Below, in pieces: positions 29,990 to 52,862 of a stretch of DNA of 64,000 nucleotides. The DNA is taken from NCBI GenBank assembly GCA_018394315.1, contig CP074575.1:1768615-1832614 (forward strand), in the 5' to 3' direction. A program made the translations under genes and the position numbers. This DNA is from Mycoplasmatota bacterium (lineage in GTDB: Bacteria; Bacillota_I; Bacilli_A; MAG-NZ). The number at the start of each line of letters is the position of its first letter. Within the stretch, counting starts at the first letter, position 1. The notes beneath the pieces were generated by a model. It did not search any database, was not told the DNA's origin, and saw only the letters and a program-made list of their open reading frames with translations.

Positions 29990-29991
29990 TA

Positions 29992-31953: not shown

Positions 31954-31978
31954 TTCACTTTCTCCTGACTGTGATTTA

Positions 31979-34329: not shown

Positions 34330-34434
34330 TTTGAAATCACCGTCCTTTAAATTTCTTTTTTCATGATTTTACAACACAAAGACTTTTTAGTCCTTTAATC
34401 TTGCTTGTGAGACATTTATCAATTTGAATCTAAA

Positions 34435-34899
34435 CTATTTTATAATCAGCGGTACTTCAATATCCATAATTAATCTATTAGAATCACTCTCAAAAAAATC
34501 AGCAGTTATGAGTAGAATCACTTCTTTTTTCTTATTCCATTCAAACCACTCAAGTGGGAGCTCATAAAAATTGATGTCGTCTTCATTAGTTCTAAGTACT
34601 GTTGAGTTCATCAATAAATCAGGAATCATAAAAGGCTTCACAACCCCATCCTCTATAACATGCAAATATATGTAATCTTTCGAATGTTTTACTTTTTCTT
34701 CTTTTTTTGAACCAGAGTACTTTAGAGAAGTTGAGAGAACTAGATTATCGTCTTCGTTCAAAACATTATCATTCAGATTAATACTAAATGTAAAATCACC
34801 ATTAGTGATTACCTGGTTGAGAGAATTGTTTTTTTCTATACAACCTAGTAGACTAACCATAATAAGTAGTAGCGATAAAATATAAATAATTAGTCTCAT
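34435..34899 (-). CDS. Hypothetical lipoprotein
   Basis: LLGC lipobox. Confidence 0.7.
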   Translation of the reverse strand: MRLIIYILSLLLIMVSLLGCIEKNNSLNQVITNGDFTFSINLNDNVLNEDDNLVLSTSLKYSGSKKEEKVKHSKDYIYLHVIEDGVVKPFMIPDLLMNSTVLRTNEDDINFYELPLEWFEWNKKKEVILLITADFFESDSNRLIMDIEVPLIIK

Positions 34900-35185
34900 A
34901 TTAACTTACTCACATCGTCTTTAGCACTACCTTGCATAATTATTGACGACATGCAAATAACCATCATATTAATTACAATCTTTTTCATTTTTTTCCTTCT
35001 TTCTTTAAAATAAATATCGTAATCACATCAATAATTAGATATTGATGCAACTTTAATATTGCCTCTAGCAGAATATTATCAAAAAAAATCCTACAAATTG
35101 GCGATGTGAGTGTCATGACATATGTAATTCATCAATTGATGACTAATTGTATCATATGCTTTTTCAAATCACAAAAAAATGAGCT

Positions 35186-35250
35186 TCTAGCAACATTGTC
35201 CAAAAAAACCCTCTTTAAACAGGGGTTTTGGGGTGTTTGATGCAAGATTT
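35186..35250. repeat. Repeat R3 (~65 bp, imperfect terminal IR), second copy at 50088-50152
   Basis: TCTAGCAACATTGT.CAAAAAAC...GGGTGTT(T)GATGCAAGATTT in both copies. Confidence 0.8.
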
Positions 35251-35328
35251 ATGCTGTTGTTTCAGGAAATGAAATGAGAGTGGGGATTTGAACTCCATTA
35301 CACATACTCTCAAAACTCAAACATTTAT

Positions 35329-35359
35329 TGGTGGAGCTGGGGGGGAGTCGAACTCCCTC
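35329..35359 (-). repeat. tmRNA/tRNA-Ala-like 3'-end fragment (R2); a weaker T-arm fragment lies at 35275-35296
   Basis: GAGGGAGTTCGACTCCCCCCCAGCTCCACCA. Confidence 0.75.
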
Positions 35360-35470
35360 ACTTTATTTTGATTGAAGCATTTATTTATCGTCTAATTTCT
35401 ATAATGGCAAAATCGATTATCATAAATATAATTACCAGATCTAGAATGCTCCAGATTTAAAAGGAGTGTT

Positions 35471-35626
35471 TCTAAAGAAAGAAAGTTTTTTAAAACTTTC
35501 TTCTATATAATATTTAGTTTTATTTTAATTTATTATTTTTTATATGTCCTTTGACTTGGGGCAGCAGAACCCATTTGTTGCTGAGCCATAGAAACCAATC
35601 TATCTGTAGCTCCATAAAAAGCCAAC
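35471..35626 (-). repeat. sspA 3'-end/terminator copy C with 50-bp att-like site 35577-35626
   Basis: Near-identical to 51304-51436. Confidence 0.95.
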
Positions 35627-35848
35627 TTCATACTTCCAATAATTGGTTTAATTCTATTCTAACACAAAGCTATAAGCTATACAAAATTATTAGTGTGCAC
35701 AAAAAGGTATACCAAGCATCTTGTTAATTCCTAAAAGAAAAACCTCTTTTATAATTTTCTACAAATAAGGGGTTAATCTTATTAATTATTAATACTCAGT
35801 ATCTAAAATTCTAAACTGTAGCATGATTTTAGGTCACTATACTATATT

Positions 35849-36085
35849 TCACCATTCCACACTAAATGGAACATTTTCTTTAAGTGTGTAGGTCTCACTA
35901 TTATATTCAAACCGAATTATAAATTCTGCTATGTATTCTCTACCCTTACTTTGGTTAAACTTACTTATGTCATCCGTATAAGTGAAATTATACGGAACTC
36001 CATTAGTGAGTTTTATTTGTGAGTCGGGATGATAAAGATAATCTTTAGTAGTTGAAGTGTATACATACTCATCATCCTGGTTCTT
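35849..36085 (-). pseudogene. Start-less 3' gene fragment (~78 open codons)
   Basis: Open frame KNQDDEYVYT...NVPFSVEW* with no start codon or RBS. Confidence 0.45.
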
Positions 36086-36171
36086 TATATCAATAGTTCG
36101 AATAATATTAATATTTTAATATTTATTTCGATTACTTCGCCATTATAATCTATATCATGTTTATTACATTC

Positions 36172-36585
36172 TTAATCTAACAATTCTACATCATAGCCTA
36201 TGATTTCAAGTAATTCTATTAATTCTTCTATTTCTTTATTGGTTTCATTTATTTTCAACGTTTGATTAGTTATATTAAACTCCAAATCTGATATACCTTC
36301 ACCTAAAAAGAAACTTCTTATTTCACTTTCAATATCTTCTTCAATTGGATTTAATATCTTCAATACTATTTGAGTATCCTTTGTTTTATAAGTTTTATCA
36401 ATTAAATATCCTGCTTTTTCTATTGCTTTATAAGCGTCTCTCACGCTAAGATCTCCTTCTTCAATCATGACAATATCATTAAGCATGTCAAATTTCACTA
36501 TTGAAAAGCCTGCAGAAATCAGCTCTGATTCGATCTTTAATCTACAATGCCCACATGCCATATTGACAACTTTTATTTCCTTCAT
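36172..36585 (-). CDS. Heavy-metal-associated (HMA) domain protein
   Basis: MACGHC motif; a second, Cys-less HMA-like domain follows. Confidence 0.8.
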   Translation of the reverse strand: MKEIKVVNMACGHCRLKIESELISAGFSIVKFDMLNDIVMIEEGDLSVRDAYKAIEKAGYLIDKTYKTKDTQIVLKILNPIEEDIESEIRSFFLGEGISDLEFNITNQTLKINETNKEIEELIELLEIIGYDVELLD

Positions 36586-36586
36586 T

Positions 36587-37138
36587 TTATCTCAACTCCA
36601 TTGTAGTAAGACAAGTTAGATCACCATCAAACGTAGAAATAGTTGAAGTACTGCTAAGCCCATTATAATTTACAGTAATAGTACCTTCTATTTCTCTAGG
36701 TAACCAAAGTTCAAAGAACCCATTTCTCAAACTTGTAACTTCGTTATTAAATATTTCTTTACCATAGCTATCTTTTACAATAACCTCAAATCTTTTCTCA
36801 ACCAGTTCAGCTCTACATCCTGTAGCACTATGGATTAGTCAGGTATGAGTAGTGTTTTCATATGGAGCAACAGCTACATAAAACATTTCTTCAGGCATTT
36901 CGTACTTCAGCTCAACAGAACCTGATCGTATGACTAGTTTGTCATCATATACTGAAGCACCCACATCCTTTATTGAAGTAGACATTTCTCCCAATTTGTA
37001 AATAATCTCCTCTATTGAAAGTTCCTCAATTCCTAGATTTTCTTTTAATTTTAACTCATCCGAAATTCCAGATTTAGTACATCCAGTTAATATTAGTACC
37101 AACACAAATATTATTACCAACTTCTTCACTTTAATCAC
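36587..37138 (-). CDS. cueP: CueP-family copper-binding lipoprotein with in-frame TGA (36839-36841); candidate selenoprotein, 183 aa
   Basis: LTGC lipobox; APYENTTHT*LIHSATGCRAEL...NGFFELWLPR...TCLTTMEL; frame stays open for 83 codons after the TGA. Confidence 0.85.
36809..36829 (-). promoter_or_regulatory. Candidate bacterial SECIS hairpin
   Basis: AGUGCUACA-GGA-UGUAGAGCU, G-led apical loop 18 nt after the UGA. Confidence 0.6.
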
Positions 37139-37153
37139 TACTTCCTATAGATT

Positions 37154-37345
37154 TTACTTATTAAAATTACTATTACTTTTGGATTTTTTCGTACATTCGG
37201 TATGCTTGCACATATCACAATCAATCTCAATTTCTATACCATCAGGAGCAGGGGTATTGTTATTAAGTAAATAAGAACCAATATATATTGCTACCATACC
37301 TAAAACAAATAAAACGACAATAAGATTTTGAATCATTGTCTTCAC
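37154..37345 (-). CDS. Small membrane protein with a Cys-rich tail
   Basis: One TM helix then CDMCKHTEC; AAGGAG RBS. Confidence 0.65.
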   Translation of the reverse strand: MKTMIQNLIVVLFVLGMVAIYIGSYLLNNNTPAPDGIEIEIDCDMCKHTECTKKSKSNSNFNK

Positions 37346-37378
37346 TCCTTTCTACTTTTGTTTATATTCTATTATATA

Positions 37379-37398
37379 AATATGAACAGAATATGAAT
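37379..37398 (-). promoter_or_regulatory. Direct repeat ATTCATATT-N2-GTTCATATT, candidate OmpR-family regulator box
   Basis: 11-bp-phased repeat next to TATAAT; a degenerate copy at 38160-38179. Confidence 0.55.
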
Positions 37399-37459
37399 TA
37401 TTAGATTGATATATTCTTCATAAGAAAAGGAGTGTCTATACACCCCTAAAATATATATA

Positions 37460-38119
37460 CTAGAATCCTCTAGAAGATCTGTAACTAGTATTTCTTCTAT
37501 AATTATTATATGAACCATGGCAACTACCGTAGAATCTACTATTAGATCCGTATCCATTCATAAATCCACCCATGTAATCGCCATATCCGTAATAGTCTAG
37601 TCCTAATTCATTAGCTTTGTCTTCAACTAAAGAATCAATAGTTTCGCGAGCGTTAATTGTTTCTTCTTCACTCATACTCGCCCAGTCATATGAGAACATC
37701 AAGTTGTGCATATAATACATTAACTCTGTCTGTTCATCTGAAGCGTAACCATACATCATTCCTGGTCGAAAACCAGCCCCAAAATCAGGTAAGTCTAATC
37801 CAAGTTCGATTGCTTTTTGATCTAAGAGTTGATTCATTTGAGATTGTGCTTCCCTGATTTCTTCAGCAGTCATTGCCGAGAAGTCATAAGCCTCAATTAA
37901 TTCAATCTGATAGTCCATGAATTGTTTCATTTCTTCATCAATAAATAATCTGTTCATACCTCCATGCATACCAAACCCACCATATTCTTGTGTTTCTTCA
38001 AATCCTAATTTTTGAGTCGCCATATGATAATAATCTTTTACTTGATTTTGTACACCATCATATGTTGCTGCAAATCCTCCAGTTAATAATGAAATAGATA
38101 ATAATAAACCTTTCATCAT
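37460..38119 (-). CDS. Secreted Met/Gly/Tyr-rich protein with two internal repeats
   Basis: Signal-like N-terminus; YDFSAMTAEE...KAIELGLD and YDWASMSEEE...KANELGLD. Confidence 0.7.
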   Translation of the reverse strand: MMKGLLLSISLLTGGFAATYDGVQNQVKDYYHMATQKLGFEETQEYGGFGMHGGMNRLFIDEEMKQFMDYQIELIEAYDFSAMTAEEIREAQSQMNQLLDQKAIELGLDLPDFGAGFRPGMMYGYASDEQTELMYYMHNLMFSYDWASMSEEETINARETIDSLVEDKANELGLDYYGYGDYMGGFMNGYGSNSRFYGSCHGSYNNYRRNTSYRSSRGF

Positions 38120-38361
38120 ATTCCTCCTTTCTTATTTTACTATTATATTATAGATAATAAATGTATAGTAAATATGAATTTCAATTTCCAATACGATTTA
38201 GAGAACCATCATAGAGCAAGCTCTAAATTACAAAAACCCCGTTCTTTATAGAATCGAACAAGGGTCTTAATTTATTTCTCAAGAAGTTTTCATAAACTGT
38301 TTTACAGTTTAGTAATTATTTTAGTTTTATTATTTCCTAACACTTGAATTACTAAATTTAT

Positions 38362-38748
38362 CTAATTGTTAACAATCTCCTCAATTTTCTCTTTACAACA
38401 TCCAAATTCAGAAACTCCGCAGTACTCTTCAATTTCTGAAACTGTAGTAGCTCCTTTTGAAATTGATTCTTCAATTTTAGCTTTACTAATGTTGTGACAA
38501 CAACATATGATTTCCTCAACTTCATTTTGACTAACAGTAAATCCTGCATCTTTTATAGTTTTTAAAATTATTTCCTCATTCTGACCGTTGAGTTCTACAT
38601 CAACAATTTTATCCTCTAAAGATATTTTATAACTTTCTATCCCTAAATCAATTAGCGCTTTTTCAATCTTTTCAGAACATGTTATACAGTTCATATCTTC
38701 TACTTTTACTTTCATTTTTGTATACTCCTTCTTATTGTAATTACTCAT
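38362..38748 (-). CDS. CopZ-like HMA domain fused to a BFD-like [2Fe-2S] domain
   Basis: MNCITC then ICCCHNIS...GATTVSEI..YCG...GCC. Confidence 0.75.
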   Translation of the reverse strand: MSNYNKKEYTKMKVKVEDMNCITCSEKIEKALIDLGIESYKISLEDKIVDVELNGQNEEIILKTIKDAGFTVSQNEVEEIICCCHNISKAKIEESISKGATTVSEIEEYCGVSEFGCCKEKIEEIVNN

Positions 38749-38755
38749 GTTACTT

Positions 38756-41224
38756 CTAATTTTCTGTTTTGAATCTCTTTAACCTTAATGCATTTAACAG
38801 TACAGAAATAGAACTGAAACTCATTGCTGCTGCAGCAAACATTGGATTTAACTTAGGCCCACCAAATGCAAAGAATAGACCAGCTGCTAGAGGTATTCCC
38901 GCAGAGTTATATGCAAATGCCCAAAATAAATTTTGTTTAATGTTTTTAATAGTGCTTTTACTAAGATGAAGAGCTGTTACAACGTCTAGTAAATCGCTTC
39001 TCATTAAAACTATATCGGCAGATTCCATGGCTACATCTGTTCCAGAACCTATTGCTATTCCTACATCTGCTTGAGCTAAAGCAGGAGCATCATTAATACC
39101 ATCACCAACCATAGCTACAGCCTTACCTAAGTCTTGAAGTTTCTTAACTTCATTCGCTTTATCTTCAGGTAATACTTCCGCTAAAACTCTATCAATTCCA
39201 ACACTTTCAGCAATAGCTGCTGCTGTACGTTTATTATCACCAGTAATCATCGTAACTTCAATACCTAACTGGTGTAATCTCTTTATAGCTCGAATACTAC
39301 TTACTTTTACAACATCAGCAACAGCAATGACACCTAATACCTGTTTCTCAGTAGAAACAAACATTGGAGTTTTACCTTCTTTAGCTAAGCGTTCAGAATC
39401 TTTCTTAAGAGATGTTATCTCAATATCTCTATCTCTCATCAATTTCTCGTTTCCAAGCAAGTAACTTTTCTTATTAACTTCTACTTCTATACCATGCCCT
39501 GGTATTGCATTAAATTTCTCAATTTGATATAAGTCAATATTTTTATTTGCTGCACCTCTCACAATAGCCTCACCTAGAGGATGTTCCGAGCTCTTTTCTG
39601 CAGATGCAGCTATCTTTAACAACTTTGTTTCGTCAAATTCATCTACAGTTATAATGTCTGTTAATTCTGGACGACCTTCAGTTATAGTCCCTGTTTTATC
39701 AAATACAATGGTATCTATTTTATGTGCAGTTTCTAACGCCACTCCACTTTTAATTAATACACCATTTTCTGCTCCTTTACCAGTTCCAACCATAATTGCA
39801 GTTGGAGTAGCAAGTCCCAGTGCACACGGACAAGCGATGACAAGAACCGATATGAAAATTGTCAGCGAAAAGACAACAGTGCTTCCAGTTATATACCAAG
39901 CAAATCCTGATATAATAGCAATTAAAAGTACTATTGGAACAAAATAACCACTAATAACATCTGCTAACTTAGCAATTGGTGCTTTAGATCCTTGTGCATC
40001 TTCCACAAGTTTTATAATCTGAGCAAGCGTAGTATCTTTACCCACTTTAGTAGCTTTGAACTGAATTGAACCAGTTTTGTTTATACTTGCACCAATAACA
40101 TGGTCACCAACATTCTTTTCAACCGGTATACTTTCCCCTGTAATCATTGCTACATCTACAGCAGTATTGCCTTTAGTAACTATCCCATCAACAGGAATCT
40201 TTTGACCTGGTTTAACAAGAACTATATCACCTTCTATTACATCGTCAATAGATACTTCTATCTCATTCCCATCCCTTATAATAGTAGCAGTCTTAGGGGC
40301 TAGACCCATCAATTTTTTTATCGCATCTGAAGTCTTCCCTTTAGCAATAGACTCTAAGTATTTTCCGAGTAATATTAACGTGATAATTACTCCTGCTGTT
40401 TCGAAGTATAAATCGCTTGCGTAAGCAATTCTCACTTCATAAGTTCCAGTTATAATCTTATATATAGCGAATAATCCATAAAGAATCGCTGCTCCAGTAC
40501 CTAAAGCAATTAAAGAGTCCATATTAGGTGAACGTTTCATTAATGTCTTAACGCCGACTACATAGAACTTATTACCAGCTATTATAACTGGTATTGTAAG
40601 CAATAATTGTACTAAGGCAAAATTAAGACTATGCTCCATAGGATCTAGAATACTAGGAATTGGTAGTTTCATCATATGTCCCATAGCTAAATAGAGTAAA
40701 GGAACTGTAAAAATCGCAGAAACTATAAATTTCTTCCACAATTTCTTCATCTCTAAACTCTTTCTTATTTTCTCCTCTTCATTACTATCGCTCTTAGATG
40801 AATCTAGTGGATTATAACCCGACTTTATTATAGAATCTCTCAACAATTTTTCAGTCACAACAGAGCCATCATATTTAATGTTAGCTGTTTCTGTTGCGAA
40901 ATTAACAGTAGCATTGATAACTCCATCAACATTACTTAGGTCTCTTTCGACAGTATTAACACAGGTTGCACATGTCATTCCTTCAATTTTTATAATAATG
41001 TTCTTAGATGCAACATCATCTTTAGCAATATATCCCGCTTTAGATACTGCTTGAATAATTTCATCATTATCTAAAATATCATTGTTATATTTCACGCTCA
41101 TTTTTTCTGTAGTTAAGTTAACTGAAACCTCTTTTACTCCATCTAGTTTAGATACTGCTTTTTCTACAGAACTAGCACAACTAGCACAAGTCATTCCACT
41201 CACTTTATATTTCTTAGTCTCCAT
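38756..41224 (-). CDS. copA: Cu(I)-exporting P1B-type ATPase
   Basis: Two GMTCxxC domains, CPC, DKTGT, HP, GDGIND, YN and MxxSS motifs. Confidence 0.97.
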   Translation of the reverse strand: METKKYKVSGMTCASCASSVEKAVSKLDGVKEVSVNLTTEKMSVKYNNDILDNDEIIQAVSKAGYIAKDDVASKNIIIKIEGMTCATCVNTVERDLSNVDGVINATVNFATETANIKYDGSVVTEKLLRDSIIKSGYNPLDSSKSDSNEEEKIRKSLEMKKLWKKFIVSAIFTVPLLYLAMGHMMKLPIPSILDPMEHSLNFALVQLLLTIPVIIAGNKFYVVGVKTLMKRSPNMDSLIALGTGAAILYGLFAIYKIITGTYEVRIAYASDLYFETAGVIITLILLGKYLESIAKGKTSDAIKKLMGLAPKTATIIRDGNEIEVSIDDVIEGDIVLVKPGQKIPVDGIVTKGNTAVDVAMITGESIPVEKNVGDHVIGASINKTGSIQFKATKVGKDTTLAQIIKLVEDAQGSKAPIAKLADVISGYFVPIVLLIAIISGFAWYITGSTVVFSLTIFISVLVIACPCALGLATPTAIMVGTGKGAENGVLIKSGVALETAHKIDTIVFDKTGTITEGRPELTDIITVDEFDETKLLKIAASAEKSSEHPLGEAIVRGAANKNIDLYQIEKFNAIPGHGIEVEVNKKSYLLGNEKLMRDRDIEITSLKKDSERLAKEGKTPMFVSTEKQVLGVIAVADVVKVSSIRAIKRLHQLGIEVTMITGDNKRTAAAIAESVGIDRVLAEVLPEDKANEVKKLQDLGKAVAMVGDGINDAPALAQADVGIAIGSGTDVAMESADIVLMRSDLLDVVTALHLSKSTIKNIKQNLFWAFAYNSAGIPLAAGLFFAFGGPKLNPMFAAAAMSFSSISVLLNALRLKRFKTEN

Positions 41225-41290
41225 AATAACACCTCATATTCTTCATATTCATAAAGTAATCAATCGTTATTTACTTTTGGGTTTATATAT

Positions 41291-41645
41291 TCAACATAAC
41301 GTACTGGGTATATTTTCTTTACTCTTCTATATACGAATATTGATATTCCAATGATTATCAATATAATTGACACAAATCTTGCTATCTGAATGGTTCCGAA
41401 CATTAAGCTTTCCGTTCTCGTATTTTCTATAAAGAATCTACCAACTGAATACCATATTAATTAAAATGATAAGTTGTCTTCTATTCAATACTTCTTTATG
41501 CCTCAGCATTTAATCGTAATTTTTCAACATCACGGTAACTTATTCATAATGCTACTAGAATACCTGATAAAATCGCTCTAGCATAGGACTGGATAAATAA
41601 AGGGCCAATCTGAATAGATTTCCTTAATGATAATAGCTCTTTCAT
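41291..41645 (-). pseudogene. lgt: Prolipoprotein diacylglyceryl transferase remnant (internal deletion, stops)
   Basis: N-terminal IQIGPLFIQSYA..ILSGILVAL* and C-terminal [18 protein letters not shown] fragments. Confidence 0.8.
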
Positions 41646-41646
41646 A

Positions 41647-41808
41647 TTATTCACTTTGTACTTGTCTTATGTGTTTATAATCATCTATTGATATTTCATC
41701 TCTAGCAAGTCTTTCATTTAATATTTCAGAAGCACTTTTCAAAGATGGTTTATCTTTATAACCCGTATAAACAAATACTAACAAAATCAAGAACAGAATA
41801 ATCCTCAT
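41647..41808 (-). CDS. Small TM+SHOCT protein, 53 aa (absent from the ORF track)
   Basis: MRIILFLILLVFVY...SASEILNERLARDEISIDDY. Confidence 0.75.
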   Translation of the reverse strand: MRIILFLILLVFVYTGYKDKPSLKSASEILNERLARDEISIDDYKHIRQVQSE

Positions 41809-41810
41809 TT

Positions 41811-42152
41811 CTATCTTCCCCTTTCAATCTCAGATTTAATTCTATTATATTCTTCTATCGTAATATCTCCATTTGCTAGTCTATTGTCTAAGATTTTTTG
41901 AGCACTAACGTCTTTCTTTTCCACTTGGAAAATTAATCTGTAGATAAATGCTACTACAAAATAGATAATTACCCAACAAACTACTATCCAAATCATCCCA
42001 AATGGCCAATAACTACCACCATAATGTCCCATCATGTGGCCACCATAATAGTAATCACCTCTTAATACATTATTTGATTGATAATTGAGAAACCAAATAC
42101 CACCAAGTATCAACACTAATATAACTATAGTAAATATAACTATTTTTTTCAT
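41811..42152 (-). CDS. SHOCT-domain membrane protein with a His/Met-rich loop
   Basis: GGHMMGHYGG; AQKILDNRLANGDITIEEY. Confidence 0.8.
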   Translation of the reverse strand: MKKIVIFTIVILVLILGGIWFLNYQSNNVLRGDYYYGGHMMGHYGGSYWPFGMIWIVVCWVIIYFVVAFIYRLIFQVEKKDVSAQKILDNRLANGDITIEEYNRIKSEIERGR

Positions 42153-42199
42153 CTTATCTCCTCCTACATTAATCTTATAAAATAACTATGAATAGATTA

Positions 42200-43465
42200 T
42201 TATTTAAACTCATTAAGGAATATTTTGAATTCTGTTCCAACTCCCTCTTTACTTAATACTTCAAGCTTTCCCCCTAAATCCAGTACAAGCAAGTTGACAA
42301 TATAAAGACCTAATCCAGATCCTTTTTTATGTAAATCAGTAGCACTTTCAACTCTATAATCCTTTTTAAATATATTTTTTAAGTGTTTATCTTGAATACC
42401 AATGCCTTTATCCTTTACAGAGAATATAATCATTTCACTCCTCTTGAGTGAGACCTCAACATAACTACTGGTTTTAGAATAGTAATAGCTATTTGATAGT
42501 AAATTGTAGATGATTCTAGAAACAGATTCCCTTTCACCTGTTATCATAATCCCTTCTTCTACATCTACCGATAAGTTGATATCTTTTGTATCAAAAACGT
42601 TTAGAAATCGCTCACAATGCTCTACTATCATTTCTGATAAATTAATTTCCTCCAAGATATACTCACTCTCGCAACTATTGACTGACTCAATTAGATTATT
42701 TAGTGTTGCAACTTCCTCTTTTAGTATTGTTAGAACGTCACCATTAATTTTAAGTCTATTAGATTCAACTCCTTCTAAATAACTCAATAATATTGTTAAG
42801 GGCGTCTTCATATCGTGTGTGATTGTTTGAAGCTCTTTTGTTCTAGATATCTTTAGTTTCGCATAATCATTGGTTATCCTATCAACTTCATTGTAAATTT
42901 CATGGAAATCTTGAAAATGAAATTCCTTATCTATAGTATCACTTTTGTTTATTTTCAATTTAAGTTTACTCATATCTTTCAAAACCTTATTAACCCTGAT
43001 CGAGATGTAATTATAATAGAAAATAAGACTTGCTATATAAACTACCAAGATAAAAAGATTAGTTACTAATAAAAATGTATTATTTAATAACGTATTTACC
43101 GAATAGGTACTGTCAATCAATACCTTACCCACTATTTCATCCTCTATATTTAGTGTGTATGATTTATAGTTACTTCCTATCAATTCAGTTTCATATAATA
43201 AGGAATCATTATAGAAGTACTTGATTGATGTGTTGTGAATATGTGAGTAGTGCTCGATGTATTCATTAACAGAATCTTTTCCATTATCTCTTATCATATG
43301 TTCCACTACCGAAGCAAAAGCTATTTCCTTTTGTACAGTTGAATGGTTTTCATAGTTGTTATTAAACAAAAATATTCCTATATTCATAATAAAGAAAATC
43401 AATGTAAACATTATACTTAGTTTTAGTACAAAATCTCTCTTGAAAAATCTTTTAAAGTCATTCAT
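42200..43465 (-). CDS. Sensor histidine kinase
   Basis: THDMKTPL, NLLSNS, DKGIGI, GSGLGL. Confidence 0.93.
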   Translation of the reverse strand: MNDFKRFFKRDFVLKLSIMFTLIFFIMNIGIFLFNNNYENHSTVQKEIAFASVVEHMIRDNGKDSVNEYIEHYSHIHNTSIKYFYNDSLLYETELIGSNYKSYTLNIEDEIVGKVLIDSTYSVNTLLNNTFLLVTNLFILVVYIASLIFYYNYISIRVNKVLKDMSKLKLKINKSDTIDKEFHFQDFHEIYNEVDRITNDYAKLKISRTKELQTITHDMKTPLTILLSYLEGVESNRLKINGDVLTILKEEVATLNNLIESVNSCESEYILEEINLSEMIVEHCERFLNVFDTKDINLSVDVEEGIMITGERESVSRIIYNLLSNSYYYSKTSSYVEVSLKRSEMIIFSVKDKGIGIQDKHLKNIFKKDYRVESATDLHKKGSGLGLYIVNLLVLDLGGKLEVLSKEGVGTEFKIFLNEFK

Positions 43466-44156
43466 CTAAATTACCTATAAACTTATATCCTAAACCATAG
43501 ATAGTCTTGATGAAAGAAGGATTCTTAATATCATCCTTTATTTTCTTTCTTATATTTTTAATATAGACATCAATAACTCTATCAAAGACATCTGAACCAT
43601 TGCCAAAACAATATTCCAACAATTGATCTCGAGTGAATATTTGAAAAGGATTTGAAGCTAGGTGTAATAGCACTCTATATTCATTACTCGTAAGTTCCAT
43701 ATCAGTATCACCTACTTTTATTATGTTGTTTTTAAGTGAAATTAATAATTTACCTCTGTTAAATGAAAGTATGTTTTTAACATTTTTGTTTCTCTTCTTA
43801 AGGAAATTTTTAATTTTTAGAAGTAGCTCATCACAGGAGAATGGCTTTACTATATAGTCATCTGCACCGATCTTCAATCCATATAATTTATCATCTATAT
43901 TAGTTTTAGCCGTTAATATAATAATATGGACATCTGAATTAACTCTTATCCTTTTAATCATTTCTTCACCTGATAATCCAGGAAGCATTAAATCAGATAT
44001 TACAATATCAATATCATAATTATTGAAAATTTCTAACCCTTCTTCCGCGCTAAGTGCTGAATAAACACTGTATCCTTCCTGCCCACAGTAAAGTGATATT
44101 AGGTTGTTGATTTTTTGGTTATCTTCGACTATCAAAATATTATTCAAATTTAACAC
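43458..44156 (-). CDS. OmpR-family response regulator
   Basis: IVED, DLMLPG, GADDYIVKPF, winged-helix IKTIYGLGY. Confidence 0.95.
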   Translation of the reverse strand: MLNLNNILIVEDNQKINNLISLYCGQEGYSVYSALSAEEGLEIFNNYDIDIVISDLMLPGLSGEEMIKRIRVNSDVHIIILTAKTNIDDKLYGLKIGADDYIVKPFSCDELLLKIKNFLKKRNKNVKNILSFNRGKLLISLKNNIIKVGDTDMELTSNEYRVLLHLASNPFQIFTRDQLLEYCFGNGSDVFDRVIDVYIKNIRKKIKDDIKNPSFIKTIYGLGYKFIGNLDE

Positions 44157-44336
44157 CTCTACTTATAATTAATATAACCACTAATTATATGGGAAATGTG
44201 TTGTTTGAATATTATATAAAAAAAATACTGAGTATCAGTAGTTAATGTTTGTTATTTCCTATATATAATAACTCAAACGTATAGTCAAAATTTATGTGAG
44301 TTGAAGTGGTTTCTTAATATTGGAGTGGATTTTGAT

Positions 44337-44492
44337 TCTAAAGAAAGAAAGTTTTTTAAAACTTTCTTCTATATAATATTTAGTTTTATTTTAATTTATT
44401 ATTTTTTATATATCCCTTGACTTGGGGCAGCAGAACCCATTTGTTGCTGAGCCATAGAAACCAATCTATCTGTAGCTTCATAAACCACCAAC
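44337..44492 (-). repeat. sspA 3'-end/terminator copy B with 50-bp att-like site 44443-44492
   Basis: Near-identical to 51304-51436. Confidence 0.95.
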
Positions 44493-44682
44493 TTTTGACA
44501 ACTTATTACAAAGATTTACATGTACTGATTCAAAGTCCTCTTTTACTAGCTATTACCGAAAAATCAGATAGAATGTCCACTTCAAGATGTTAATTAATCC
44601 TTTGTAATTATTAGATAAAAGGACAAGATTTCAACAAACCTAGTCTTTTTATCTAGTCCTTAACTTACAGCTTAAATAATAA

Positions 44683-47037
44683 CTAATCATTTCTTATTTC
44701 TAAGTTTGGATGGTAATAGGAAATATTATAGTTAGCTATTCCATTTCCTCTATTAATCTTAAAAAATTCTAATATATAATCCTTGTCCTTATCATCATAC
44801 GAGTGTTCTTGTGTTTTATTTGTAATAAACTGACCCGTTCCACCCAACTCATAATATATGTCAATTATATTGAACCACTTCTCAGGCATATCACGTCCAA
44901 TTAAGCCTATTAATAAATCTCTTTCTTCTTCTGTGAACGTGTCATACCCCCAAAGAGGATCATTAGTGTCTAGCATTCCAAGATGGAATAATTTAGGTAA
45001 ATCACCATATGTTTTACTATCAAATTCAGAACCAAATAAGTATTCATGATTAGCTATTCCTACAGGATAAATCAGTTCAGACCCTTGATAATTATCACTT
45101 GGTAAAATTGGATGATGAATTCCTCCAACATAAACAGCTTTGAATTCTTCCGGATAAATTGATGATAATCTATTTGCAAATGCTCCTCCTGTTGAAAATC
45201 CACCAATAAATACTTTCTCCTCAAGGTCAAATCCAGCTTCACTTAGTCTTTCCTTCGCATCATCTAGTATATTCATCATCTGGACCTCATAGTTTTTGAG
45301 TAACTCAAGGTCTTCTCGAGTATATATAGAACCCTTACTAATTTCCATATTTTCAAATTCATCTTCCAAGTACATAGTAGTACTATCTAAGTCTTGTGGC
45401 TTTATAACTTCAGTTACTTCACTTGTGATGTTTCTAACATCAGGTCGTGGAGTTATTGGCATTACTCTTGGGACATGAAGTTCATCAGAAACATAATACA
45501 TTACTCTCCAATTTTCATGTAGCGACTCATAAGCCTCAATAATAGTTTCTATGAAATTGTCATTAGACTTAGGGTTATTAGTTTCAAATATTAGATATGA
45601 TAAGTCATTACTATTTATTAATTGATTATTGGATGTTGGTAGTTGTATAAAATATGGATAATTAAAACCTTTATCTGGATTAGCAGGTATAAATACAATT
45701 TTACCATAATCCGTATTTTTGAAACTTGTTCCAAGTTCTATAATCTCCCTCATTTCTCTCTCTTGCCATGAAAGAATCTCTGAAATATCAGCTATCCCTG
45801 ATATTTCAGATGTAAATAAATCATCTGGTAATACTTCAAACATCTTGATTAAGTTTGACTCACTACTAGCGTTAAGTATAATAATATGCTTTCCATCATA
45901 ATTTCTTGACAAGTATTGATTTTCTTCAAGTCTTGAAGCTTCTGGAATCAATTCTTTTATATACAATGGGAAATCTTGATTCGGAATATTTAAAACAATT
46001 ATTTGACTGGCGTAGTCTATTTCATTTTGAGTCACATTCTGATTTGATTGTTTACTACAATTATCAAATTGATAAAAATCTATCATTCTATTTACAGATT
46101 CTCTTTGTCCAATAATCAAATTATCCTTTAAATCATCTTCATTATAGAATTCCATTTCGGGATCAGATGGAGGAGTAATAATTTCATGTACGTCTTTCAC
46201 AATTTCAATACGTGACAATTTATTATTTGGAGGTGCAATAACACCTTCTTTGTCAGTATATATTGTATATACGTCAACATTCATCGGGTTAATTGGACTA
46301 AATACATTAGTTTCCCTAAATAAATTATCTATATATGCCCTATAATCAGATTCACCAGTATTAACATATAATACTAACTGTTCTCCATCTACTATTAAGT
46401 TGTATCCATTTTTCAATTCAAAAAAAACTGGAATTCTCCTCTCAAGAAGAATATACCAATCCCACCATGCTGGATTACTAAAATGATAATTCCCGTCTAA
46501 CAAAATTGAGTGAACTTGATCTCCTCTTTCTATTTCTTCATTTTCAACAAACTCTCGAACATTCTTCATACTTGCCAACCAGTATGGTAAGTCTATCCCT
46601 AGCGTATGATGTACGTGCCTTTGTAAGTAATTTAGTGCATCTTCATCTCCGGCAACGAAAAAATTATCATCGACGAAATATTCGTCTACAATTATTTTTA
46701 ATTCTTCATAAGATATTTGGTAACCTTCTTTTAAAGAATTAATGACATCAGTGAGTTGAATTACTTCCTCTTTTTTTTCTGTTGAGACATCAGAATCATC
46801 TTCTCGAGTGTTGCCCTCTGTATCAATTACATCGACAATCTCACTTGGAACATTATCTCCAGTTCCATCATCTGTTGTAATTTTTTCAGTAGTCTCACCA
46901 GAATCACTTTCTGCTAAAGTTTCTTCTTGTTCAATAATTCCCGCTACCTCACCAATTCCAGCAGTGTTATCTGTACATCCAATCAACATAAAAACTATTA
47001 AGAGTATCATTACTTTTTTCCACATAAGTACCTCCAT
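44683..47037 (-). CDS. Large acidic lipoprotein with a C-terminal alpha/beta-hydrolase-like domain
   Basis: LIGC lipobox, acidic linker, GGFSTGG nucleophile elbow, candidate Asp (DTND) and His (QEHSY). Confidence 0.65.
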   Translation of the reverse strand: MEVLMWKKVMILLIVFMLIGCTDNTAGIGEVAGIIEQEETLAESDSGETTEKITTDDGTGDNVPSEIVDVIDTEGNTREDDSDVSTEKKEEVIQLTDVINSLKEGYQISYEELKIIVDEYFVDDNFFVAGDEDALNYLQRHVHHTLGIDLPYWLASMKNVREFVENEEIERGDQVHSILLDGNYHFSNPAWWDWYILLERRIPVFFELKNGYNLIVDGEQLVLYVNTGESDYRAYIDNLFRETNVFSPINPMNVDVYTIYTDKEGVIAPPNNKLSRIEIVKDVHEIITPPSDPEMEFYNEDDLKDNLIIGQRESVNRMIDFYQFDNCSKQSNQNVTQNEIDYASQIIVLNIPNQDFPLYIKELIPEASRLEENQYLSRNYDGKHIIILNASSESNLIKMFEVLPDDLFTSEISGIADISEILSWQEREMREIIELGTSFKNTDYGKIVFIPANPDKGFNYPYFIQLPTSNNQLINSNDLSYLIFETNNPKSNDNFIETIIEAYESLHENWRVMYYVSDELHVPRVMPITPRPDVRNITSEVTEVIKPQDLDSTTMYLEDEFENMEISKGSIYTREDLELLKNYEVQMMNILDDAKERLSEAGFDLEEKVFIGGFSTGGAFANRLSSIYPEEFKAVYVGGIHHPILPSDNYQGSELIYPVGIANHEYLFGSEFDSKTYGDLPKLFHLGMLDTNDPLWGYDTFTEEERDLLIGLIGRDMPEKWFNIIDIYYELGGTGQFITNKTQEHSYDDKDKDYILEFFKINRGNGIANYNISYYHPNLEIRND

Positions 47038-47158
47038 CTATAGAATGTATTGACTTATTATATCATGAATAAATATTTATAGAGTTCAATTAAGATGCAA
47101 TCCTTCGACAAAGATTAACTGAATCTAGATTGAGGTCAGATTCAATATGATAGTTTAA

Positions 47159-47236
47159 GGAGAGACTAAAGGGAATCGAACCCTCGTAAGTCAAACATAC
47201 ACTTATTTCAATATGTATTTTTTCAAAGATCGATCG
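47159..47236 (-). repeat. tRNA-like T-arm fragment plus flank (R2), homologous to 51124-51203
   Basis: CGAGGGTTCGATTCCCTTTAGTCTCTCC; flank aligns with the 51.1-kb copy. Confidence 0.7.
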
Positions 47237-47454
47237 TATTCTATTTGATGAATGATGAGTTTATTATATCTGTAAATGATTAACCTCATCAATTCATCTA
47301 CTTCTATTATAAGATTTATACGGAATGATTCGTTCTGTTCAAAAAAATAATTTAATTTTTTGATTTACCATAGAAATAATTATAGATATAATATCTGCTT
47401 ATAACAAAAAAAAGACAAGATTTCTTTAAAATCATGTCTTTTTCTAGTCATTAA

Positions 47455-47660
47455 TATAATCATTTCATATTTCTAGGTTTGGATGGTAATATGATATATT
47501 ATAGTTAGCTACTCCATCTCCTATATTAACCTTAAAAAATTATAATATATATATATATTCCATACCGTCTTGATCATAAAAATATTTTTGTGTCTTATCA
47601 TACCCCCAACGAGGATCATTAGTGTCCAACATTCCAAGATGGAATAATTTAGATAAATTA
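47455..47660 (-). pseudogene. Degenerate duplicate of the 3' end of the 784-aa lipoprotein gene
   Basis: Matches ~44685-44820 and ~44943-45003 with the middle deleted; followed by the same R4 terminator. Confidence 0.8.
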
Positions 47661-47780
47661 TTTTATAATCAAAAATATATGTGTGTAAATGACAAAATCG
47701 AAGAATGAGTTGTTAACACTTTTTTTATATATGAATCACTAATTTCCTTCAAAATTTCTATGACCTCACTAACATAGGAA

Positions 47781-48617
47781 TTACCCATTACCTGATCCGG
47801 AGATTGGATCTGGGAAGTACATTCCTTCAAAATTAAAAAGTCCATTTTCAATAGCATATGTTAACGTCATTATTTCATCATTGACCAAAAAAACATAATC
47901 AGAAAATGATCCACCTACAATAGTGTGATTATCAATGGATTCTTCGTAATCAGAATCATAACTATGATTAGTATTGTAATATAATGGCATTTTGCGATAC
48001 ATTCCAAGATAAACGCTATTCTTGCCTAGATAATCAATGATGATATCTGGAACAAAGTCCTTTTCATTTATCAGTACTGCTTTAGCCGAAGTCTTTCCAG
48101 GAAAAGATTCCAACATAACATCATAAGTTATTTCAACTAGGTTTCCAACCTCAAACTCATCTGAAACTCCTTTGCAAAACTTTGGTTTTTTTTCAATATT
48201 TACAATAGTCATACCCTCATCAAGAGTATTAACCCAAATACTTTCTTCTTTTACTTTGACAATGGGTCCCAACACATTGTAATTAACTTCATAAATTGCT
48301 GGATAGTTTGCCTTTACAGCAGTGGCATTCCATGGATAACTAGATTTATCAAGATCCTTAATTTCAAATTCTAGATGATGTCGCCACAGTTCAACCTCAG
48401 GAAAATTGTCTGGAAGTTCAGTTTCATAATTAATCTCAACCCACACATAACCATAGTTAGATAACCTATCTGGTATCAATAATTTATTATCCTTTTGATC
48501 TCTTGGCCTTCCTGCAACCATGTTATCAAATAATGGATTATTATCAACCGGAGAACAATTATTGTCTTTACAACCTACTAAATTTAGTAATAAAATCAGG
48601 AATATGATTTTTCTCAT
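47781..48617 (-). CDS. Lipoprotein with a DUF3221/YobA-like domain
   Basis: LVGC lipobox; VGNLVEITYDVMLESFPGK. Confidence 0.65.
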   Translation of the reverse strand: MRKIIFLILLLNLVGCKDNNCSPVDNNPLFDNMVAGRPRDQKDNKLLIPDRLSNYGYVWVEINYETELPDNFPEVELWRHHLEFEIKDLDKSSYPWNATAVKANYPAIYEVNYNVLGPIVKVKEESIWVNTLDEGMTIVNIEKKPKFCKGVSDEFEVGNLVEITYDVMLESFPGKTSAKAVLINEKDFVPDIIIDYLGKNSVYLGMYRKMPLYYNTNHSYDSDYEESIDNHTIVGGSFSDYVFLVNDEIMTLTYAIENGLFNFEGMYFPDPISGSGNG

Positions 48618-48922
48618 AACTTAAGACTCCTTATACTTTTGATCTCATCATTAAAAAACATTCATCAGAGTAAACATAAATTCTAATATTATAATCCCAT
48701 AAAATGTAGATATGGAATAAATCTTTTCGATCTTTATACATCTACTGTTTAGGATTTAAAACAATTACAGTAAAATTGTATTATTAGACCAATAATTGAA
48801 GAACGTATTTTATTTGAAGAGTGTACTCTTTTTAAGTAACGTATATTTTAAGAATCGTATAGATTCGACAATAACAAGGTCAATTCCAATACGATTCTAC
48901 TACTTAAATTTACGATTATGGA

Positions 48923-49867
48923 TTAACTAATATGATTGCTTTCTAAATATGATTTTAGCCATGAACTCATTTTCCTTGCGATATTCATGGGTTCTCCAGT
49001 CACTCCACCGTTATGTATCGCTACAATCCTATTTTGTGAATCATAAACAGGTGAACCGCTTTGACCAGATGTAGCATCAACTTTATACTCAATAGTATAT
49101 AGATTGAGATCATAAACTGGTCCATCAGCGGTCCACATTGTCTTTGACGTTGCATCTGGAGTTGTGTTAGGATAGCCAGTTAAGTTAATGTTTTGTGCAA
49201 TTAATACATTATCATGTAAATCAAATATTTTTACTCCGCTGTCCACGTTAGAAGAAAGAGTGATTACTCCCCAATCATGATTAGTTGAACCGCTACTCTC
49301 CCACTGAGATGCAACTGAAATTGTTGCTGCATACTCCGTACTAAAATGATTAGTATTTTCGTCTACTCCCGGAGACACAGTAACCGCATAAGCCCATCCT
49401 AAGTTATCTTTATGATCATACAGACAATGTCCAGCAGTTAGTACACTGTTTGCATCTATCATTGCACCTGTACAATAGCCGTTATATATATCATTATTCA
49501 CATCCTTGTAGTACATTTTCAGGTGTACTATTCCTGAATACGGATCGGCAGTTGTGTCAGTAACCCTAACTCGATCGTCATCTGATGGTGTTGGTAAGAT
49601 ACTTTTAATATCGTTATCAAGACCTAAATGTGCTTCAGCATAAGTCGGATAATCACCTAGCACTCTATCACCTACAGTTAACTGTCCTGTTTCGCTATCA
49701 TATACAACTTTCTCTAAATCAATACTGATTTCTTCTATCTCTTCCTTATATTTTCCATTCTTAGCAAGTACGTCTTGTCCGGAAATAGTGAATAAACATA
49801 AAAACAAACACATCATAATTACTTTTTTCATCCCAAATCTCACTTTCTTTTTTTTTGTGAATTCCAT
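48923..49867 (-). CDS. Secreted trypsin-like serine protease (V8/Mpr glutamyl-endopeptidase type); likely start ATG 49831
   Basis: CTG, LTAGHC, DWGVI, GQSGSPV catalytic triad motifs. Confidence 0.88.
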   Translation of the reverse strand: MEFTKKKKVRFGMKKVIMMCLFLCLFTISGQDVLAKNGKYKEEIEEISIDLEKVVYDSETGQLTVGDRVLGDYPTYAEAHLGLDNDIKSILPTPSDDDRVRVTDTTADPYSGIVHLKMYYKDVNNDIYNGYCTGAMIDANSVLTAGHCLYDHKDNLGWAYAVTVSPGVDENTNHFSTEYAATISVASQWESSGSTNHDWGVITLSSNVDSGVKIFDLHDNVLIAQNINLTGYPNTTPDATSKTMWTADGPVYDLNLYTIEYKVDATSGQSGSPVYDSQNRIVAIHNGGVTGEPMNIARKMSSWLKSYLESNHIS

Positions 49868-50087
49868 AGTTTAATGTCTTAAATATTGTATCCTCTTAAA
49901 TACTCCTTTCTAATACTAATATGAAATAGTGTTTGTACTATTGATGTGCGAAAAAAATGTAATAGTCCCTACTATCAAATATTAATTTCATCGTTATAAT
50001 CAACACTTAAGAACTCAAAAACAAATATATTTGAATTCACAATTAAATTATACACTGACTATTATAGAATTCAAAATTTTTTTGTAG

Positions 50088-50152
50088 TCTAGCAACATTG
50101 TTCAAAAAACACTGCTTTAAGGGGGGTAATTTAGGGTGTTGATGCAAGATTT
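50088..50152. repeat. Repeat R3, second copy
   Basis: Aligns with 35186-35250. Confidence 0.8.
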
Positions 50153-50627
50153 CATATAAAAGTTAAAAAAAGAAATGATATAAGAAATAATATTGACAGC
50201 AAATATCTCCAAAAAGGGTATCAATGATTAAGTGGATTTAATATCTTTTTTTATGAATGGAGAAAGTTCAACTTATTCCATATCAAGGAGAAATTATACT
50301 CAATCAGTTGACTATAATTCTTAAATTAGCAATTGCCCTTGCTAACTTAATCTATATAAGTAACAATAATTGAATCTACATAAACTCGTCTATCTCATAC
50401 AATAGCTTGTTTAGACGTGAGTCACTAAAGTATGTATACTTACAAAAGTGTCAATTAACTGTTTGTGAGGAGACACACACTTACTACTACAAGCAGCTAA
50501 ACCATACCATTGGTTTTTAAAATCAGCAGGCATTATCAATACATCTCAAGTAAGTGATCGAATGGTGGAATTATATGTACTCATATTAACTCTCACCAAT
50601 TTATCTACTTCCATTATATCACTTACT

Positions 50628-50825
50628 CTAAAATCTTATATGGACCACTCTTTTAAATTGATTTGACCTCCTCAATACAATAGATAACTCTTCAGCTAGG
50701 TTTTCTGATTCAATAAGTGATGCTTTATTACTTATGCTCCAAAGTTCCAAATTGTCTTCATAAATGCAGATTCCATGTATGCGGTCATCTTTATCCACAA
50801 TGCTTATTAGATTCATATTAATCAC
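50628..50825 (-). pseudogene. Short ORF with RBS, probably the 5' remnant of a decayed gene
   Basis: AAGGAG RBS; downstream 50200-50620 is stop-ridden; family not recognised. Confidence 0.35.
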
Positions 50826-51123
50826 TCCTTATGAAAAGGATAGTGAATCTTTTACTACAAATCAATATAATATAATTGAATAATTAATTATTTTCTATTA
50901 CACTCTATAAATTTCTTTTAGTACAAACAGTATAGCAAAGATGGATGTCCAATCGTTCTTCCAGTGTTTACTCAATACATATTCAAGTCATCTATGTACA
51001 AAATTAAAATCATTATTCAGTCATAGAAATCCATTCACAGAGGACTAAGTATCGACAATAATCAGATACTGACTATGTAAATAAAAAAGATTAGATGTAA
51101 TCATCCAATCTCATGAGTCTCAA

Positions 51124-51203
51124 TGGGGTGACTGAAGGAATCGAACCCTCATACGTTAAACTTATACTTACTTCAATATATAATCTTTCAAAAAATAAAT
51201 CGC
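51124..51203 (-). repeat. tRNA(His-like) 3'-end fragment plus flank (R2)
   Basis: GAGGGTTCGATTCCTTCAGTCACCCCA; no 5' half. Confidence 0.7.
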
Positions 51204-51312
51204 TAAAAAACAGTATTGACTAAACTTATATAAAAAGTTCATTTCGATTAACGTACAGTATAATTTTCATAGTTCCTAAGCACCAGAATTAAAATGATTA
51301 TACTCTAAAAGA

Positions 51313-51336
51313 AAGAAAGTTTTTTAAAACTTTCTT
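51313..51336 (-). terminator. Intrinsic terminator of sspA
   Basis: AAGAAAGTTTT/AAAACTTTCTT stem followed by TCTTTT. Confidence 0.7.
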
Positions 51337-51366
51337 CTATATAATATTTAGTTTTATTTTAATTTA

Positions 51367-51588
51367 TTATTTTTTATATGTCCCTTGACTTGGGGCAGCA
51401 GAACCCATTTGTTGTTGAGCCATTGAAACCAATCTACGAGTTATTTCTCCACCAACTGACCCGTTTTGTCTAGCCGTACTGTCAGGTCCTAATGTTACAC
51501 CAAGTTCACTGGCAATCTCGTATTTCATTTGATCGATTGCAGCCTGTGCTCCTGGAACTACTAATTTATTATAAGAGTTTTGAGCCAT
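51367..51588 (-). CDS. sspA: Alpha/beta-type small acid-soluble spore protein
   Basis: [25 protein letters not shown]...[15 protein letters not shown]; downstream of thiI as in Bacillus; GGAGGTG RBS. Confidence 0.95.
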
Positions 51589-51647: not shown

Positions 51648-52862
51648 TTATGTAATTTTTACCTCAAAACCTTCTTTTGGTAAATCAAGACTTGAATTAG
51701 TTTTTATTACTGCTGTTTGTGTATTCTCTACACACCAATCTACCATTGATTCATAATCAAATATTTCTTCTCTAATACATTTTTCAATTTTTGGTTTAGT
51801 AACTGGTTTACTTGGTACATAAACTGTGCAACAATCTTCAAAAGGTCTTATTGAAATATCGTAAGTATTAACATTTTTTGATATTTTTACTATTTCCGAT
51901 TTATCCATAGATATTAATGGTCTTAGTACAGGAATATTAACAACATCATTTATCGAATTAATACTTTCAATTGTTTGTGATGCGACTTGACCTAAACTTT
52001 CACCTGTTATTAAACAATTACTGCCGAATTTTTTTGCTAGTTTTTCTGATATTCTAAACATCATTCTTCTCATTATAGTTATCTTATATGAGTCATTTAC
52101 TTTTTCTAGGATTTTCATATGCAAGTCCTTAAACGGTACGAAATGAACCTTTATACCTCTATTTGGCGCATACTCAGCCATTTTTTTAGTTAACTCTACA
52201 ACTTTTTGAGCTGACTCAATTGGAGTCAAAGGAGTGGATTCAAAATGTATACCTTCTACTTCCATTCCTCTTTTCATCGTCAAAAACCCTGCTACAGGCG
52301 AATCAATTCCACCAGATAAAAGAAGCATTCCCTTACCTGATACACCAATCGGAAGACCACCTAAACCCATAGTTTTATCAAAATAAAGATAACTTGAATC
52401 CTGCCTTATTTCAATATAAAGCTTAACATCAGGATTTTTCATTTTTACTTTGTAATTATCAGTATTTTGAAGCACATAAGCAGCTACTTCTTTTGTAATA
52501 TCCATTGAAGTTAGAGGATATCTCTTATCGCTACGTTTTGTTTCTACTTTAAAAGTTTTTTCTTCCTTAATAGACTTTGATAATTCTAAAGCCAATTTCT
52601 TTATATCATTCATATCTTTTGAAGTTGTCGCAACTAAACTATATGAATGTAATCCAAAAACTTTATTTAGTCTTTCAACAACATTAGTATATTTTTCCCC
52701 ATTCAAAATAATATATAATCTATCGTGTCTTTTATCAAAAGAAATTTTTTCCAAATCATTACACTTATCTCTTACCATCTGATAAACTCTATTGATAAAA
52801 TCTTTTTTATTTTTCCCTTTTAAAGTTAATTCACCATATCTTATTAATATTCTATCGTACAT
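51648..52862 (-). CDS. thiI: tRNA 4-thiouridine synthase ThiI
   Basis: RYGELTLKGKN, LLSGGIDSPVA, TGESLGQVASQT, EDCC. Confidence 0.96.
   Translation of the reverse strand: MYDRILIRYGELTLKGKNKKDFINRVYQMVRDKCNDLEKISFDKRHDRLYIILNGEKYTNVVERLNKVFGLHSYSLVATTSKDMNDIKKLALELSKSIKEEKTFKVETKRSDKRYPLTSMDITKEVAAYVLQNTDNYKVKMKNPDVKLYIEIRQDSSYLYFDKTMGLGGLPIGVSGKGMLLLSGGIDSPVAGFLTMKRGMEVEGIHFESTPLTPIESAQKVVELTKKMAEYAPNRGIKVHFVPFKDLHMKILEKVNDSYKITIMRRMMFRISEKLAKKFGSNCLITGESLGQVASQTIESINSINDVVNIPVLRPLISMDKSEIVKISKNVNTYDISIRPFEDCCTVYVPSKPVTKPKIEKCIREEIFDYESMVDWCVENTQTAVIKTNSSLDLPKEGFEVKIT

Follow-up and report, generated by a model that had tools for sequence, protein, structure and literature searches.

The window, which is the whole 64,000-nucleotide stretch of DNA analysed here, comes from the single-contig, 2.17-Mb genome of a Mycoplasmatota bacterium (G000), and positions are those of the window unless they are marked as genome or C1 positions. 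On the minus strand, which carries all the features of the array, the backbone gene thiI (51648..52862; Pfam ThiI/THUMP) lies upstream of an intact sspA (51367..51588; PF00269, E 2e-22), the sole SASP gene recovered from this genome with the query used. A terminator-like hairpin, read from the sequence at 51310..51338, stands 3' of sspA and is repeated 3' of every copy of its tail. Four such copies split the 21 kb behind the gene into four cargo modules. Module A (44493..51300, ~6.8 kb) encodes a trypsin-like protease and two lipoprotein-like proteins and holds two att-like fragments of a tRNA-His 3' end: one at 51109..51198, with a partial arm, is an att site of another system with matches to the tRNA-His gene and to the array copies of it at genome 253-270 kb, and the other at 47164..47360, with a conserved arm of ~170 bp, is 85-87% identical over 198 bp to those array copies. 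It ends at the attP-like junction c44 (44443..44492; TA at 44467-44468), composed of a 24-bp arm and an sspA-type right arm, after which the remaining sspA replacement 3' end and its terminator (44336..44442) continue in frame to the stop. Module B (35627..44335, ~8.7 kb) is a copper/heavy-metal cluster with a two-component system, a P-type ATPase with HMA domains, HMA proteins and a split cueP, and is followed by the attP-like junction c35 (35577..35626; TA at 35601-35602) with the rest of its replacement 3' end and terminator (35469..35576). Module C (30656..35468, ~4.8 kb) contains lipoprotein-like and membrane genes, a DUF4386 gene and a zinc-type dehydrogenase; the degenerate junction c30 (30547..30655), an sspA tail and terminator with the core and left arm missing, separates it from module D (29990..30546), a single gene for a P-loop kinase-like protein of 184 aa whose stop abuts the junction. 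The attP-like junction c29 (29940..29989; TA at 29964-29965) is the farthest from sspA, and its diverged tail and terminator (29851..29939) differ from those of c44 at 9 of 91 positions beyond the arm.

Every copy reads as an in-frame SspA tail to the stop and then the hairpin; all four stand directly behind sspA, none was found elsewhere in the genome, and the copies most distant from the gene are the most diverged. The degenerate c30 has a flank (30654-30764) that is 79% identical over 112 bp to 44567-44677, upstream of c44, with the join at a GA microhomology, so its core and left arm were apparently lost by a deletion of ~116 bp relative to c44. The locus differs in G004 and G002, two family relatives having sspA: the backbone order is the same, with thiI-sspA leading on to trmH-like, rimP and nusA genes (names assigned by reading the translations), with no repeated tail there. 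Direct repeats of the sspA 3' end separate cargo devoid of mobility genes. The feature is genuine: a tandem accretion array without an integrase, at a target gene that is new. We set aside the co-orientation of the cargo as evidence since the GC skew suggests that the minus strand is leading at the locus, which makes it uninformative. The genome has spo0A, so the host is probably a spore former.

Several observations concern the cargo itself. The DUF4386 gene (31879-32723) has another copy at genome 1740631-1741475 with 98% identity and one in the tmRNA array of G004 with 87%, which indicates recent cargo movement. The cueP-like gene (36590-37138) occupies two frames, split by an in-frame stop or a frameshift, and the lipoprotein-like gene at 47781-48617 has four paralogues (67-70%) in a repeat-rich region at genome 1.42-1.46 Mb. 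Two inverted ISL3 copies of different subtypes (27662-29175 and 54294-55812, 84% identical) flank the whole array together with thiI-rpsD, and near-identical copies of them occur elsewhere in the genome.

A sequence-only reading of this DNA, which missed the degenerate c30, had proposed that three of the junctions have the geometry of a large-serine-recombinase (LSR) attP and that the intact gene is attB-like. Much of the description holds: c29, c35 and c44 each measure exactly 50 bp from GTTG to CAAC around a central TA, and the homology to sspA stops at that TA (GA-TA-GATTGG in the copies, CG-TA-GATTGG in the gene). The conservation claimed for the half that does not derive from sspA is far beyond chance, since 12 of the 24 left-arm positions are invariant among the three window sites and a fourth site found in G004, against 1, 0 and 2 of 24 in three blocks upstream of the arm and a mean of 0.74 (maximum 6 of 24) in 200,000 random draws. 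In all four sites the arm homology ends abruptly at -24/-25, with unrelated DNA beyond, which gives a half-site of ~24-25 bp on the element side. Because the copies share ancestry, this conservation is evidence of homology with a sharp boundary rather than of independent selection. The arms differ at 4-10 of 24 positions within the window and at 6-10 of 24 between the two genera, while the distal tails of the two genera differ by ~30%.

The attB-like site of sspA (51411..51460; TA at 51435-51436) carries the outer motif GTTGGTGG at 51449-51456, 4 bp nearer to the centre than in the copies, as had been claimed. A matrix built from the four arms places this motif in the left half of the gene at a shift of exactly 4 bp, where the outer nine positions score 10.0 and the next best shift 1.5; the inner G(-11) and AC(-5,-4) occupy identical positions in arm and gene. 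The right arm behaves differently: its outer five positions score 4.8 at shift 0 in gene and copies alike and -3.2 at shift 4, so that the motif score does not tell P' from B', and GTTG occurs in the right arm of the gene at shifts 0 and +3. The outer motif also follows the host, being GTTGG in the gene and all three copies of this genome and GTAGG in the thiI-linked gene of G004 and its copy, a covariation of one position in one comparison. The TA is common to copies and gene, and the core that the G004 copy and gene have in common is at most TAGA.

The symmetry attributed to the site was overstated. The self-complementary pairs number 11, 10, 7 and 9 of 25, counts reached by 7%, 15%, 59% and 27% of regional 50-mers and hence at chance level; the intact gene, with 14 of 50 matches, equals the copy at 29940, and the right-hand CAAC belongs to the Gln codons of the gene and is present in the intact gene too. 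These are not the pseudo-palindromes expected of attP. What stands of the attP/attB assignment is the length of the left arm, the 4-bp shift, the coinciding inner G and AC, the host-matched motif and the core of at most 4 bp common to copy and gene in G004, and the serine identity that we infer for the sites is probable. Taken together, the sharp arm, the shift, the match to the host allele and the TAGA-only core in G004 favour the geometry of LSR attP and attB sites, and we consider it likely that the junctions are of LSR type. Three further leads were discarded: a match of ACAGATA to the SPbeta core occurs in only two of the four sites, a likeness of the arm to the start of an LSR remnant is absent from the top matches of the arm matrix, and the single IS110 copy of the genome has no arm-like site nearby among the top matrix matches.

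The fourth site extends these findings to a second genus of the same family. At C1:1553913-1553962, G004 has a single junction in which the arm and the TA recur, the tail reads RLVTHAQQQMGSTK and the terminator resembles that of its own sspA. This junction is not at sspA; it belongs to a long tandem array that follows the tmRNA gene, where the sspA-type site precedes a tRNA-Phe-type site. Compared with the gene of its host, this copy differs at 9 of 24 arm bases and 11 of 94 distal ones (Fisher p 0.005), and it keeps L, V and A through synonymous codons despite the arm differences; at a position occupied by M, Q, L, Y or R in the 31 distinct SASP tails of the metagenome loci, it encodes His. 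Its tail resembles that of G004 and not that of the window's genome. A recoded replacement arm would look like this, although the copy may instead stem from a donor of an unsampled species. Of 8 genomes of the family, 2 have the junction pattern, and in a scan of 401 genomes of the class these were again the only two; a looser pattern had 0 matches among 201 genomes of another class.

The recombinase had been supposed to be lost or to act in trans, and an HMM search for Resolvase, Recombinase and Zn-ribbon proteins had been called for. The part of this supposition that stands is that no intact serine recombinase was found in the single-contig, 93.6%-complete genome: PF07508 and PF00239 had 0 matches, no cognate Resolvase + Recombinase + Zn-ribbon gene was found on the element or in the genome, and neither the annotated frames of the array nor 115 intergenic frames contained a recombinase of any family. 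An HMM made from the four LSRs of G004, the only one of eight family genomes with LSRs, recovered two unrelated-looking C-terminal remnants elsewhere in the genome, at 1082945-1083730 (79% to an LSR of the G004 tmRNA array) and at 100711-101022, and a weak match of 73 aa at genome 857713 (E 0.007). None of the four LSRs of G004 adjoins its sspA-type site, the nearest lying ~42 kb away.

Searches in wider collections gave a similar picture. Viral pattern scans produced 1, 0, 3, 1 and 2 matches, all judged chance on reading, the junction pattern had 0 matches in metagenomes, and its 2 matches in the genome collection were both intact genes; in all, no further junction was found in the viral, metagenome, genome, phage and plasmid collections or in the sets of 401 and 201 genomes. 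The best 80 of 401 metagenome SASP loci, many of them short, contained no LSR and no orphan tail, and the viral and phage SASP matches were whole genes (60 of the 70 phage matches listed); LSR-like frames in the viral loci L071 and L051 were taken as the prophages' own integrases. The 30 LSR loci inspected, out of ~224 matches in 150 genomes, showed no SASP tail within 1.5 kb (one genome unscored), and an LSR lying 34 kb from a SASP cluster in G034 was dismissed as unrelated. The literature searched, with weak coverage of subscription papers and bioRxiv supplements, contained no SASP-targeting recombinase, and no SASP terms were found in the searched text of the eight supplementary files of PMC10083194. 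As the lineage is thinly sampled, none of these searches for recombinase or junction is evidence of absence.

The way in which the array was built can be approached through the alleles. Integration at the TA should put the right arm of the element on the gene and that of the host on the last junction. Between the intact gene and the three full copies there are two consistent differences, both of them synonymous and in the arm, against none over 101 distal bp (p 0.036); at the two positions the gene has the alleles found in the sspA genes of G004 and G002. Even c29, for all its divergence, matches the other full copies exactly in this arm, and the coreless c30 has the variant allele at the sole position that it retained. 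The gene thus carries outgroup-type alleles and the three full copies the variant ones, and the simplest reading of the array is attB...attP...attP, not attL...attR, an argument of two bases that would mean that an integrase alone did not build it. Entry by RecA through ~100 bp of common tail is the likelier route on this pattern, and with it a side remark of the sequence-only reading, that the elements may have entered by homologous recombination through the shared tail, gains in weight. The genome has recA and comEC. Precise excision of an integrase-bearing element after the accretion of the modules would also explain the pattern.

We therefore give about equal weight to the truth and the failure of the following complete model. 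The junctions would be orphan attP-type sites (P-TA-P') of a gene-restoring LSR whose target, and presumed point of crossover, is the TA in the Arg-Arg codons of sspA. P' would be a spare in-frame sspA tail with its terminator, so that integration would leave the gene whole. Circles of cargo bearing P-P' may have entered mostly through RecA, crossing over in the ~100 bp of tail plus terminator distal to the arm; the gene would then retain the arm of the host (B-B') and each junction that of the element (P-P'). An element carrying the LSR may once have been present and later have been excised precisely. Should an integrase arrive in trans, attB and attP in direct repeat would make the modules deletable one-way. 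Besides the failure to find a cognate recombinase, the chance-level symmetry, the undiscriminating right arm, the 5-bp shift of most LSRs and the small base of the allele argument, two further facts count against this model: the site was found in only two genomes, and the other arrays of the lineage stand at tRNA and tmRNA ends, several of them next to tyrosine integrases.

Since the allele case consists of two bases, an array built by successive integrase entries, with a right arm that tolerates them, is still a serious rival, if one that we judge rather unlikely. Here the sites would again be of LSR type, the array would have been built by repeated site-specific integration, and the newest element alone would account for the two allele differences. 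The position of all four copies directly behind sspA and nowhere else, the greater divergence of the farthest ones and the two registers of GTTG in the right arm speak for it; through its Gln-codon repeats this arm would tolerate both registers, and the restored gene would stay usable as attB, in the manner of SCC at rlmH or the ssrA islands of Dehalococcoides. Tandem serine-recombinase islands with integrase-less members have moreover been described (PMC3146451). Against it, repeated integration needs two private changes in the arm of the gene, both matching the outgroup alleles and none distal, and it does not sit well with the strongly recoded arm of the G004 copy, which is unlike its gene.

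A tyrosine recombinase acting in trans on a minimal 24-bp arm, with its overlap to the right of the TA, is also unlikely. The genome has 10 PF00589 matches, one of which could be the enzyme, several stand beside tRNA or tmRNA genes, and tandem 3'-end copies are common in it, being present at several tRNAs and at the tmRNA. Everything to the right of the TA is homologous in this genome, so that the crossover is not placeable from it alone. An att site of a tyrosine integrase has an identical overlap of 6-8 bp and a long arm region. In G004, the identity of copy and gene at the core spans 4 bp, too few for such an overlap, and the sspA-type arm has 24 bp whereas the tRNA-His and tmRNA att copies of these genomes keep arms of 100-170 bp (~170 bp at the tRNA-His copies). 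The array contains no tyrosine recombinase or remnant, and the 4-bp motif shift would be left unexplained.

A third explanation dispenses with a site-specific enzyme: one old illegitimate fusion of an sspA tail to foreign DNA would have been multiplied by recombination, homologous or unequal, with nothing but shared ancestry behind the arm. The failure to find a recombinase, the chance-level symmetry and the presence of competence and RecA genes agree with this, but we hold it to be very improbable because four sites have the same sharp edge at -24/-25 with unrelated DNA beyond, the arm homology is as high between genera as in the window despite the divergence of the distal tails, and the tail of the G004 copy resembles that of its own host. 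Finally, the idea that elements of the skin or gin type interrupted sspA and left the copies as attR scars, which would suit the frequent splitting of sporulation genes by LSR elements (PMC5595907) and, as P-B' hybrids, would need no symmetry, is largely refuted: sspA is intact and not split into 5' and 3' parts, no orphan 5' half of it and no second, non-sspA arm were found, and interruption does not yield several tandem tails.

These genomes contain further arrays, which we describe as observations in their own right. Tyrosine recombinases with open frames of 304-359 aa lie at G000:C1:7305, 657959, 1043219 and 1479139, adjoining tRNA-Trp, tRNA-Ser, tmRNA and tRNA-Arg, each with downstream repeats of the 3' end. 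Behind the tmRNA and its integrase, at G000:C1:1050158-1057766, genes for membrane and secreted proteins may possibly form a filamentous-phage-like or conjugative element, an impression from the translations. Outside the window, at G000:C1:576073-583883 and far from the tRNA-Phe gene, twelve units ~400-900 bp apart, mostly of one gene each, start with a fragment of the tRNA-Phe anticodon arm (GGATTGAAAATCC core); this array is integron-like and no recombinase was seen beside it. In G004, an array of more than 130 kb behind the tmRNA (C1:1530000-1663500) contains many tmRNA 3' copies with a common arm of ~100 bp, ~20 units of the tRNA-Phe-core type, two LSRs and a second sspA as cargo, and C1:2017600-2062330 holds seven copies of another hairpin site of ~65 bp among two LSR/primase elements.

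Because module A holds two tRNA-His att fragments and the sspA-type site of G004 is followed by a tRNA-Phe-type one, the cargo blocks carry sites of several systems. A broader scheme, which we consider speculative and doubtful, is that the lineage runs integrase-less, multi-address cassettes: blocks with docking sites of several unrelated systems (sspA-type, tRNA-His, tRNA-Phe core and tmRNA) would use any address open to them, in many cases by RecA recombination in a spare gene tail, and the outcome would be adjacent attB and attP sites in direct repeat. With these in place, an incoming serine integrase could remove selected blocks in a one-way reaction and at the same time rewrite the end of a spore DNA-protecting protein.

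The array suggests a previously undescribed chromosomal landing pad. If the preferred model of orphan LSR sites and mainly RecA entry is true, a SASP gene joins the targets of recombinases, with a gene-restoring rather than a gene-splitting design, and LSR-type sites become readable from sequence alone through arm length, motif shift and host covariation. The natural variants of the site in two genera may define the likely binding motif and could provide bait for a new integrase, and the attB...attP arrangement would be an unusual natural substrate. The cargo includes a copper-handling cluster, which makes the site a real adaptive hotspot. As no enzyme accompanies it, the array is a well-supported lead and not a system.

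Among known systems, the closest in geometry are the att sites of LI/A118 and SPbeta SprA. The LI integrase has 25-bp half-sites with a 9-bp ZD motif at positions 16-24 and a 5-bp shift (PMC3783163); most LSRs show a 5-bp shift and SPbeta a 4-bp one (PMC11722253), and the minimal SPbeta sites measure 52 bp for attP, which is highly symmetric, and 44 bp for attB (PMC5499854). The sspA sites share with them a length of ~50 bp, half-sites of 24-25 bp, an outer motif that on the left arm lies further in at the host site (by 4 bp, the SPbeta figure, against 5 bp for LI) and a short shared core. They differ from them in being weakly symmetric, in having as right arm a coding replacement tail, in coming with no enzyme that was found and in standing attB...attP in cis, not attL...attR. 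Since symmetry, enzyme and attL/attR arrangement were each looked for and not found, the array is not assignable to an LSR system.

The elements skin, SPbeta in spsM and gin in gerE likewise have an LSR-type site inside a sporulation gene, and they split the gene (PMC5595907) and excise to restore it, whereas sspA was never split and has several modules stacked behind it. SASP genes, in the case of sspC, are expressed in the forespore, so that a split of sspA would presumably be heritable. The cis-mobilizable elements at tRNA and tmRNA ends resemble the array in having cargo without mobility genes between repeated target ends, and differ in target, in the short sspA arm (24 bp) and probably in enzyme class. 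The staphylococcal SCC arrays integrate at rlmH. Together with the tandem serine-recombinase islands at the ssrA gene of Dehalococcoides, they have in common with the sspA array the tandem islands behind a single-copy, non-tRNA gene, the direct repeats of its end and the integrase-less members; they have a serine recombinase and a 20-bp repeat, while the sspA array has no integration module left and its repeat is the recoded ~130-bp tail of a protein-coding spore gene. That the array works like the tandem ssrA islands, with the whole of the model above, has in our judgement roughly an even chance.
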